DNA of 64,000 nt from Escherichia coli. Its GTDB lineage: Bacteria; Pseudomonadota; Gammaproteobacteria; Enterobacterales; Enterobacteriaceae. The DNA lies in assembly GCF_024700885.2 (NCBI RefSeq), contig NZ_CP117016.1, one strand, 5' to 3'. The notes below the pieces were generated by a model, which was not told where the DNA came from, did no database searches, and worked only from the letters and a program-made list of their open reading frames with translations. Both the position numbers and the translations under genes were made by a program. Of the stretch, positions 30,415 through 32,403 are shown in pieces. How positions within the stretch are numbered: the stretch's first letter is position 1; every line of letters begins with the position of its first letter.

Positions 30415-31068
30415 TTATCCCTGCCCGGTAAGCCGTGCCACCTGGTCTGCAAGCACAGAAGAAAGCACACACCAGAGACCAGCCAGCGTCACAATACCCG
30501 CCCCCCATGACAACCAGTACATCGTTCTGCCAGCACGGTAACCCGGTGCACGCACCACCACCGGCGCATCCTGTGCGAAAGTAAATGCAGGAACACGCGC
30601 TGTCAGTGCGCGTATTACATCTTCGCGACGCTCATCATCCTGCGACCGGTACTGACCGGTAAAACCGAGCTGAAGCGTACGGCAGAGGCATGTCAGTACC
30701 GCCACATCCGGCGCTGGTAATTTCAGTTGTTCACGAATACGCTCCCAGAGCTCTTCACCGGCATTGAGCGTACCAAAAAAATGAGCCTGCAGCGGGTCCT
30801 GCTGCCAGGTGCGCCAGCCATCGTCTGTTTTTTCGCGGTTCAGTACACTCTCGTCCAGCAGGGCGCAGAAGGCATACAACATGATGTCACTGCTTTTCTG
30901 ACTGAATCCTGCTTCGGCCAGCTCTTCACGCGCCTGTTTCACCAGCTGACAGGCACGGCGATACAGGGCCTTACCATCCTCAACCGGTTGCCCGCTGCGC
31001 AGCTGGCTGACCATCAGCCAGCCGGGATAAAAAATCTGTTCAGCCCGGGAGATAACAGGTTTATTCAT
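30415..31068 (-). CDS. tssL: T6SS membrane subunit TssL (DotU family)
   Basis: Likely start MNKPVISRAEQIF... directly after tssK stop; C-terminal TM helix (WLSWGAGIVTLAGLWCVL). Confidence 0.7.
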   Translation of the reverse strand: MNKPVISRAEQIFYPGWLMVSQLRSGQPVEDGKALYRRACQLVKQAREELAEAGFSQKSSDIMLYAFCALLDESVLNREKTDDGWRTWQQDPLQAHFFGTLNAGEELWERIREQLKLPAPDVAVLTCLCRTLQLGFTGQYRSQDDERREDVIRALTARVPAFTFAQDAPVVVRAPGYRAGRTMYWLSWGAGIVTLAGLWCVLSSVLADQVARLTGQG

Positions 31069-32403
31069 GTCCGCAGCACCGCAAAAAGTTCCAGTTTCAC
31101 ATCTCCCAGCGATGCCGGGGTGTAGAAAGTACAACGCCCCGCGTCCAGCATCGCCCGGGCCGCATCCGTACTTAAATCCAGCGCGAAATACTGGTTTTCC
31201 AGCCGGAGCGGAATGGCCGCCGGTACATGCGTAACCGGACGGATAATGACCCCGCTCAGCGCCACATTCACCACCTCAGACACATCATCGGGGCTCCCGG
31301 CTTTGCATAGCTGCGGAAACTTCGTCTGCAGTTCATGCCCGGGCATGGAAGAGCGCACTGAAAGCCAGAAATCAGCCCCTTCGCGCAGACGCGCATCATG
31401 TAATGCCCCCTCCCACATCACACCCTTTTGTTTCAGTTCAATGAAAACCACACGGGAAGGCAGGCTTGCCTCCAGCAGCCGGTTCAGCAAAGAAAGCAAT
31501 GGTGGGAAAACATTTTCAGGTGTTTCATGATGGTATGCCGGAACCGCATCCACATTATGCTCAAGCGAGAATGTGAGCAGGGAGCCTGCCAGCCGGGCAA
31601 GCTCCCTGTACAACAGTTCCGGGTGGCGGTAAGGCATGTCAAGCAACTCTTTCAGAACAGGCTCCGCACTGTTCAGGGCATTCAGCAACCAGAACAACGA
31701 CACGTCCGCCACAGCAAAATCCGCAAGACGGGCATTGTTCTCCCGACGCATGGACATCAGTCGCTGGCGACGCGCCTGCAGGTGATGAAGCAACTCCGCA
31801 AGTTCAGTCATCAGCGAAGGACTGGCAGACAGCGTCAGCAGAGGGGGAATAAAACGCGGGTCCCTGCACCACTGTCCCTGTGCATCACGAACAAGACGGG
31901 TAACGGGACAGGTCAGCCAGGCAGCATTTTCCTGATGAGCCATGCGCAGAGTCAGGTTATGCCGCAATACCGCCACTTCGCTTTGCTCATGCCCGGCCAG
32001 CTCCTGCACATTCACCCTTTCTGATTTCCAGCGACGCGGACGCTCGCTCTCACTGCCATTATCAATGGTTGCCACCGTTAGCATTCAGTAACGGTAGTGC
32101 CAGCACAATATCCACCAGGGAACGATCAGAAACCGTCGATAAATCACAGACCGGAGGCAGATTATCCGCGCGTTCCGTATCAATAAGCGTTCCGTCCGGG
32201 AAACGAACAATCAGACGGGTGGCATTCAACCGTGAAAGCGGTAACAGAGAGTCATCAAACTCTGCAGCCACCACGCCCCATGGATGCGCCAGCCCCATTC
32301 TGGCAACGCTGTCTGCCAGATGAACATCCCAGGCAGCCTGCTGCTGAAACTGCTGGGGCATCAGAAAAGCCCCGTCTTCCCATAGTGGGCGATAAATCTT
32401 CAT
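31065..32403 (-). pseudogene. tssK: T6SS baseplate subunit TssK, reading frame broken near 32062-32084 (frameshift)
   Basis: N-terminal 113-aa ORF (MKIYRPLWEDGAFLMPQQFQQQ..., ends 32062) and C-terminal 339-aa ORF (from 32084) are in different frames and overlap by 23 nt; together they equal a normal TssK length. Confidence 0.6.

Follow-up and report, generated by a model that had tools for sequence, protein, structure and literature searches.

The protein nearest to the one considered here is TssK of the EAEC Sci-1 T6SS (EC042_RS24180, WP_000708638.1), for which several structures are available (PDB 5M30, 5MWN, 6GIY and 6N38). Residues 1-315 of TssK form the shoulder and the neck, and the head binds TssL and TssM (PMC6300606). 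In EAEC, a single TssK substitution, A430E, abolishes binding to TssL and strongly reduces both sheath assembly and killing (bioRxiv 10.1101/2025.02.08.637259), and in Serratia TssK is essential for secretion (PMC4072051). When EAEC 17-2 was subjected to experimental evolution, the T6SS was lost through mutations in tssK, tssM, tssF and the promoter (bioRxiv 10.1101/2025.02.08.637259).

In this study, we analysed tssK in a stretch of Escherichia coli DNA of 64,000 nucleotides (hereafter the window), where the gene sits between tssC and tssL inside a T6SS cluster with the same gene order as in EAEC 042 (tssB-tssC-tssK-tssL-tagL-hcp-tssH). At the DNA level, the window tssK is identical to that of 042 apart from one synonymous SNP and one inserted A; when the extra A is removed in silico, the gene encodes a 445-aa protein that is 100% identical to 042 TssK over its whole length, and the crystal structures 5M30 and 5MWN and the TssKFG cryo-EM structure are of the same protein as this repaired TssK. 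Unlike in 042, however, the frame is broken at codon 113, which truncates the shoulder and leaves the neck and the head out of frame. As in the evolved EAEC 17-2 and in E. coli strains with frameshifted or IS-disrupted T6SS genes, the loss of Sci-1 that is expected here would result from the mutation of a structural gene; in contrast to the missense changes of evolved EAEC 17-2, the lesion in the window is a natural frameshift present in many wild samples.

Split reading frame of tssK

The list of ORFs contains two minus-strand tssK fragments (Table 1), and a single uninterrupted TssK ORF of ~445 aa is absent from this locus, where a 1-nt insertion interrupts the frame at codon 113. The 113-aa ORF, whose C-terminus reads ...LLNANGGNH before the stop, matches TIGR03353 (the NCBIfam TssK equivalog) at positions 2-108 of 429 with 94.7 bits, and the 339-aa ORF matches positions 104-429 of 429 with 303 bits; the two matches adjoin and together cover the profile over its full length. 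Precomputed matches to PF05936 (T6SS_VasE) are also found on both fragments. A preliminary description of this DNA had TssK split into two ORFs, the first stopping at 32062 and the second resuming at 32084, with an overlap of 23 nt, and the ORFs, their coordinates and the profile matches bear this out. Its further statement that the pieces sum to a normal TssK length is close to the mark rather than exact, as the sum is 452 aa compared with 445 aa for the intact protein; the excess comes from the listed second ORF, whose ATG is out of frame and precedes the junction by seven codons.

Table 1. Positions of tssK, its fragments and lesion, and neighbouring features in the window
Feature	Coordinates	Strand	Description
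Whole Sci-1 T6SS cluster, tssB to tssE	8471..34482	-	All genes except tssK annotated intact
tssL	30415..31068	-	Downstream of tssK; ATG overlapping the tssK stop
tssK pseudogene, Sci-1 T6SS cluster	31065..32403	-	1339 nt compared with 1338 nt when intact
C-terminal fragment ORF	31065..32084	-	339 aa; out-of-frame MLTVATI (first 7), then TssK D114-T445
N-terminal fragment ORF	32062..32403	-	113 aa; TssK residues 1-112 and His, then TGA
Perfect inverted repeat CCATT-GAT-AATGG	32056..32068	-	Completed by the inserted A
Tandem in-frame stops TGA and TAA	32059..32064	-	Created by the frameshift
Inserted base	32066	-	Coding-strand A (T on the + strand); nucleotide 338 of the gene
tssC	32419..33963	-	Upstream neighbour, intact; WP_000930191.1, same as in 042

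Alignment with the intact tssK of EAEC 042 places the extra A between CC and TT in the context GGCAACC[A]TTGAT, directly after codon 112, with CAT as the shifted codon 113, followed by TGA and then TAA. The indel had previously been placed near 32062-32084, with the GGCAACCATTGAT stretch named, and the alignment, which puts the A at 32066 and inside that stretch, proves this location exactly right. With a premature TGA at 32064-32062 and an indel relative to intact orthologues, the gene is classed as a frameshift pseudogene. Stop-codon readthrough was rejected as a means of restoring the protein, because TAA directly follows TGA and the frame further downstream is a different one. We likewise rejected phase variation and slippage during transcription, as the insertion site contains no homopolymer or short tandem repeat.

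The inserted base also completes a 5-bp stem with a 3-nt loop that is present in the mutant allele only (Table 1). Template switching at a quasi-palindrome may thus have been the source of the inserted A, but we take this as a weak hint, because a stem just as good would take in the new base for ~4.4% of the single-base insertions possible in tssK.

Reality and distribution of the insertion

Whether the extra A could have arisen during sequencing or assembly, the true tssK being intact, was judged against other genomes and assemblies. In a megablast search of complete E. coli genomes, the region 31000-32480 of the window matched strain MLI114 in all 1481 nt (100%), and the other full-length matches listed, including EAEC 042 and 55989, span 1480 nt. 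MLI114 is an ST349 ESBL isolate from Mali, and its assembly was obtained from ONT reads with Trycycler and polished by medaka and Illumina Polypolish (PMC10198576); MLI121, a close relative, shares the sequence type. The reverse-complemented window matches the MLI114 record NZ_CP117013.1 (830504-894503) across all 64 kb except for one G, the sole difference being a run of eight G in the window and seven in RefSeq at 42659-42666, which is apparently intergenic. The window may thus correspond to an earlier version of this assembly or to the sister isolate MLI121. The MLI114 gene NL414_RS04590, 100% identical to the window tssK, is already annotated by RefSeq/PGAP as a pseudogene ('tssK ... frameshifted'). 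The difference in the G run shows that there is indel uncertainty in this assembly family, and only MLI114 shows the insertion among the complete-genome matches listed; both observations would favour an artefact. Against it, the insertion site lies outside any homopolymer and the MLI114 assembly was Illumina-polished.

More decisively, the allele recurs well beyond this assembly. An exact-sequence look-up in an assembly collection found the 113-aa product in 294 indexed blocks on 178 contigs and the 339-aa product in 253 indexed blocks on 153 contigs, and a truncated product recorded on so many contigs speaks against an artefact. We fetched nine loci bearing the allele: four scaffolds from ENA gut metagenomes, each of a different sample, four Logan assemblies, each of a separate sequencing run, and one NCTC chromosome (GCA_900450185.1, 5.22 Mb). 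All nine encode the identical split ORF pair, and the identical A insertion was seen in both loci that were aligned base by base. Over 5-17 kb of T6SS core, each of the nine loci has 0-1 SNP relative to the window if two additional lesions of the NCTC strain are set aside; three of them diverge in the island region on the upstream side of tssB, where substitutions occur in dense patches. Because the same insertion recurs in independent assemblies, from other samples and by other assembly routes, the lesion is regarded as real, and the probability left for an intact tssK hidden by an error is next to negligible. On this comparison, the frameshift is not confined to one isolate or assembly and a sequencing artefact is excluded, which disposes of the sequencing or assembly error that the preliminary description had offered as one option. 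It follows that public run assemblies are able to settle the question of 'sequencing error or real' without access to raw reads.

The insertion is nevertheless carried by a small part of the genomes holding this stretch. A 101-nt stretch around it is held by 72 complete E. coli genomes, 60 of which were listed (MLI114 and 59 others) and 12 of which were not; among those listed, MLI114 is the only exact match, and the 59 others span 100 nt here, that is, they are without the extra base. On the evidence of bit scores, the same tssK DNA minus the insertion seems to be present in four complete genomes. The intact 042 tssK allele was found, as an exact match, on at least 1000 contigs. Because the 59 other listed complete genomes lack the extra A and the 042 allele is on that many contigs, the frameshift is, as judged from these distributions, a derived, minority and lineage-associated allele.

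Recoding and split-gene alternatives

A frameshift need not silence a gene if the ribosome corrects it. One such +1 case is the programmed frameshift of prfB, which takes place at CUU UGA C with a Shine-Dalgarno-like element 3 nt upstream and a slippery codon in the P site. In tssK, a +1 ribosomal shift at CAU-UGA, when the stop codon occupies the A site, would yield full-length TssK with L113H and leave Sci-1 at least partly active. The locus is like prfB in that an in-frame UGA would occupy the A site at the shift point, that a +1 shift is what is needed (at CAT|T it would restore the frame with L113H as the sole change) and that a weak Shine-Dalgarno-like GGUGG stands shortly upstream; the remainder of the Sci-1 cluster is also intact. 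It is unlike prfB in that the spacing from GGUGG to the CAU codon is 4 nt and not 3, that a slippery P-site codon is lacking and that the site is not conserved among orthologues. A +1 shift would have to occur within AAU GCU AAC GGU GGC AAC CAU, the zone between the +1-frame TGA (32087-32085) and the 0-frame TGA (32064-32062), and none of these seven codons is slippery: the re-pairings would be CAU to AUU, AAC to ACC, GGC to GCA, GGU to GUG, AAC to ACG, GCU to CUA and AAU to AUG. In particular, the tRNA-His on CAU is unable to re-pair with the +1 codon AUU. A homopolymer that would permit transcriptional slippage is absent, and the 59 other listed complete genomes have an uninterrupted ORF without the shift site, which points to a new mutation and not to a conserved signal. 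PGAP, moreover, marks IS3 transposases of the same genome as 'programmed frameshift' but tssK as 'frameshifted'. We therefore regard recoding, which had been put forward earlier as a third option, as very improbable, there being no slippery codon and no conservation of the shift site among orthologues.

Equally improbable in our view is that both the N-terminal fragment (residues 1-113) and a re-initiated C-terminal fragment are produced and combine into a functional TssK. Three candidate starts occur no more than 20 nt from the stop: ATG 32084, GTG 32075 and, sharing nucleotides with the stop in AUUGA, an AUU. The junction NANGGN-DNGSESERPRR has many Gly, Asn and Ser residues and, judged from its sequence, resembles a loop. 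However, none of the candidate starts is preceded by a Shine-Dalgarno sequence, as reading of the sequence before ATG 32084 in particular confirmed, and AUU initiates poorly. At codon 113, the break falls within the TssK shoulder, a single beta-sandwich domain, and the equivalog TIGR03353 models one protein of 429 positions. No naturally split TssK family was seen in the protein clusters, in which the short members are contig-end partials. Homologues with the two parts as normally separate genes would, according to the preliminary description, have counted against its reading; in the homologues looked at, they are one gene.

A weaker version of both ideas is that low-level +1 frameshifting (giving TssK L113H) or reinitiation at AUUGA (giving fragments that assemble) keeps a reduced Sci-1 in ST349-like strains. 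If true, a partial supply of TssK would explain the intact state of every other Sci-1 gene, but we would rate its probability only marginally above that of the full versions.

The Sci-1 cluster and its surroundings

The ordinary pseudogene lies in an otherwise well-preserved cluster. The Sci-1 cluster of ~26 kb shares about 99.96% identity with its EAEC 042 counterpart, most of its other genes in the window encode the same proteins as in 042 and, besides a copy-number difference at tli1, the tssK insertion is the only indel relative to 042. The tli1 immunity gene is present in one copy in the window (~19380-19450) and in two tandem copies in EAEC 042, and this difference adjoins the gene for the Tle1 phospholipase effector. 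Three substitutions relative to 042 were noted upstream of tssB, at 34509, 34596 and 34619 on the minus strand, in the GATC-rich sci1 promoter/5'UTR region, one of them 27 nt upstream of the tssB start.

On its downstream side, tssK overlaps tssL as ATGA (31065-31068). This overlap suggests translational coupling of tssK and tssL, and TssL may consequently be lowered as well after premature termination in tssK, a polar effect that would add to the loss of TssK itself.

The other Sci-1 genes are intact in the window and in six of seven further loci. In the NCTC genome (GCA_900450185.1, UGFM01000001.1), IS66 is inserted in a 188-aa gene between tssH and vgrG, at the place matching window 24919-24927, and a change from six to five G at window 25995 divides tssH into 677 and 197 aa. 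As the latter lies in a G run, it could be a sequencing error; taken together, the extra lesions of this genome fit relaxed selection on Sci-1. The intact state of the remaining Sci-1 genes is, as we read the sequences, no argument for continued selection, because the clade, with 0-1 SNP between loci per 11-17 kb, is so young that secondary decay would not yet be expected.

The matching genome is not T6SS-null. A complete Sci-2/aai T6SS is found at 901103-919470 of the MLI114 record, beyond window position 1 and about 15 kb away, and it keeps an intact tssK and aaiC/hcp2. Rescue of Sci-1 by the Sci-2 TssK was considered and is unlikely, given an identity of only 20% between the two proteins. 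Further on past Sci-2/aai, MLI114 carries the pic autotransporter gene; it thus has genes of an EAEC-type chromosomal island, yet it is not the one aggR-positive isolate of the source study.

Other parts of the island contain broken genes of their own. In the MLI114 stretch matching window ~2740-4110, the genes for an ImpA-N-terminal-domain protein, a member of the ShlB/FhaC family and a VasL-domain protein are partial. Similar partial genes occur in 042, with a POTRA domain annotated for the middle one, and they have the appearance of relics of another, degraded secretion locus. In the stretch matching window ~56000-61700, the istA gene of an IS21-family element is frameshifted, the same IS interrupts a DUF4942 gene, and two antitoxin genes beside an intact CbtA-family toxin gene contain internal stops.

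Discussion

The tssK of the window is best read as an ordinary frameshift pseudogene, one that is already known through its RefSeq flag. We propose, with a probability of about 0.9, that it represents a genuine, lineage-specific and recent loss-of-function allele and that Sci-1 is inactivated as a result. According to the mechanism that we envisage, a single A inserted after codon 112 (window 32066) in an otherwise intact Sci-1 cluster would mean that useful amounts of the neck and the head of TssK, including the TssL-binding head, are no longer produced. Lacking a TssK trimer, the baseplate would be neither assembled nor docked to the membrane complex, and Sci-1 without a docked baseplate should not fire. 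A polar effect through the ATGA overlap with tssL might be added to this, and the adjacent Sci-2/aai T6SS would be unaffected. The suggestion in the preliminary description that the T6SS is inactive is therefore retained as the best reading for Sci-1 only, as an intact Sci-2/aai T6SS is present elsewhere in the matching genome.

The wider significance of this allele is small. It adds one more natural case of T6SS inactivation through a point lesion; such a lesion parallels the outcome of the experimental evolution of EAEC. It also provides a caveat for the scoring of T6SS content by gene presence alone. For the organism itself, our reading predicts that MLI114/ST349 and its relatives, including populations in gut metagenomes, would be without the Tle1-delivering antibacterial activity of Sci-1 and would keep Sci-2/aai.
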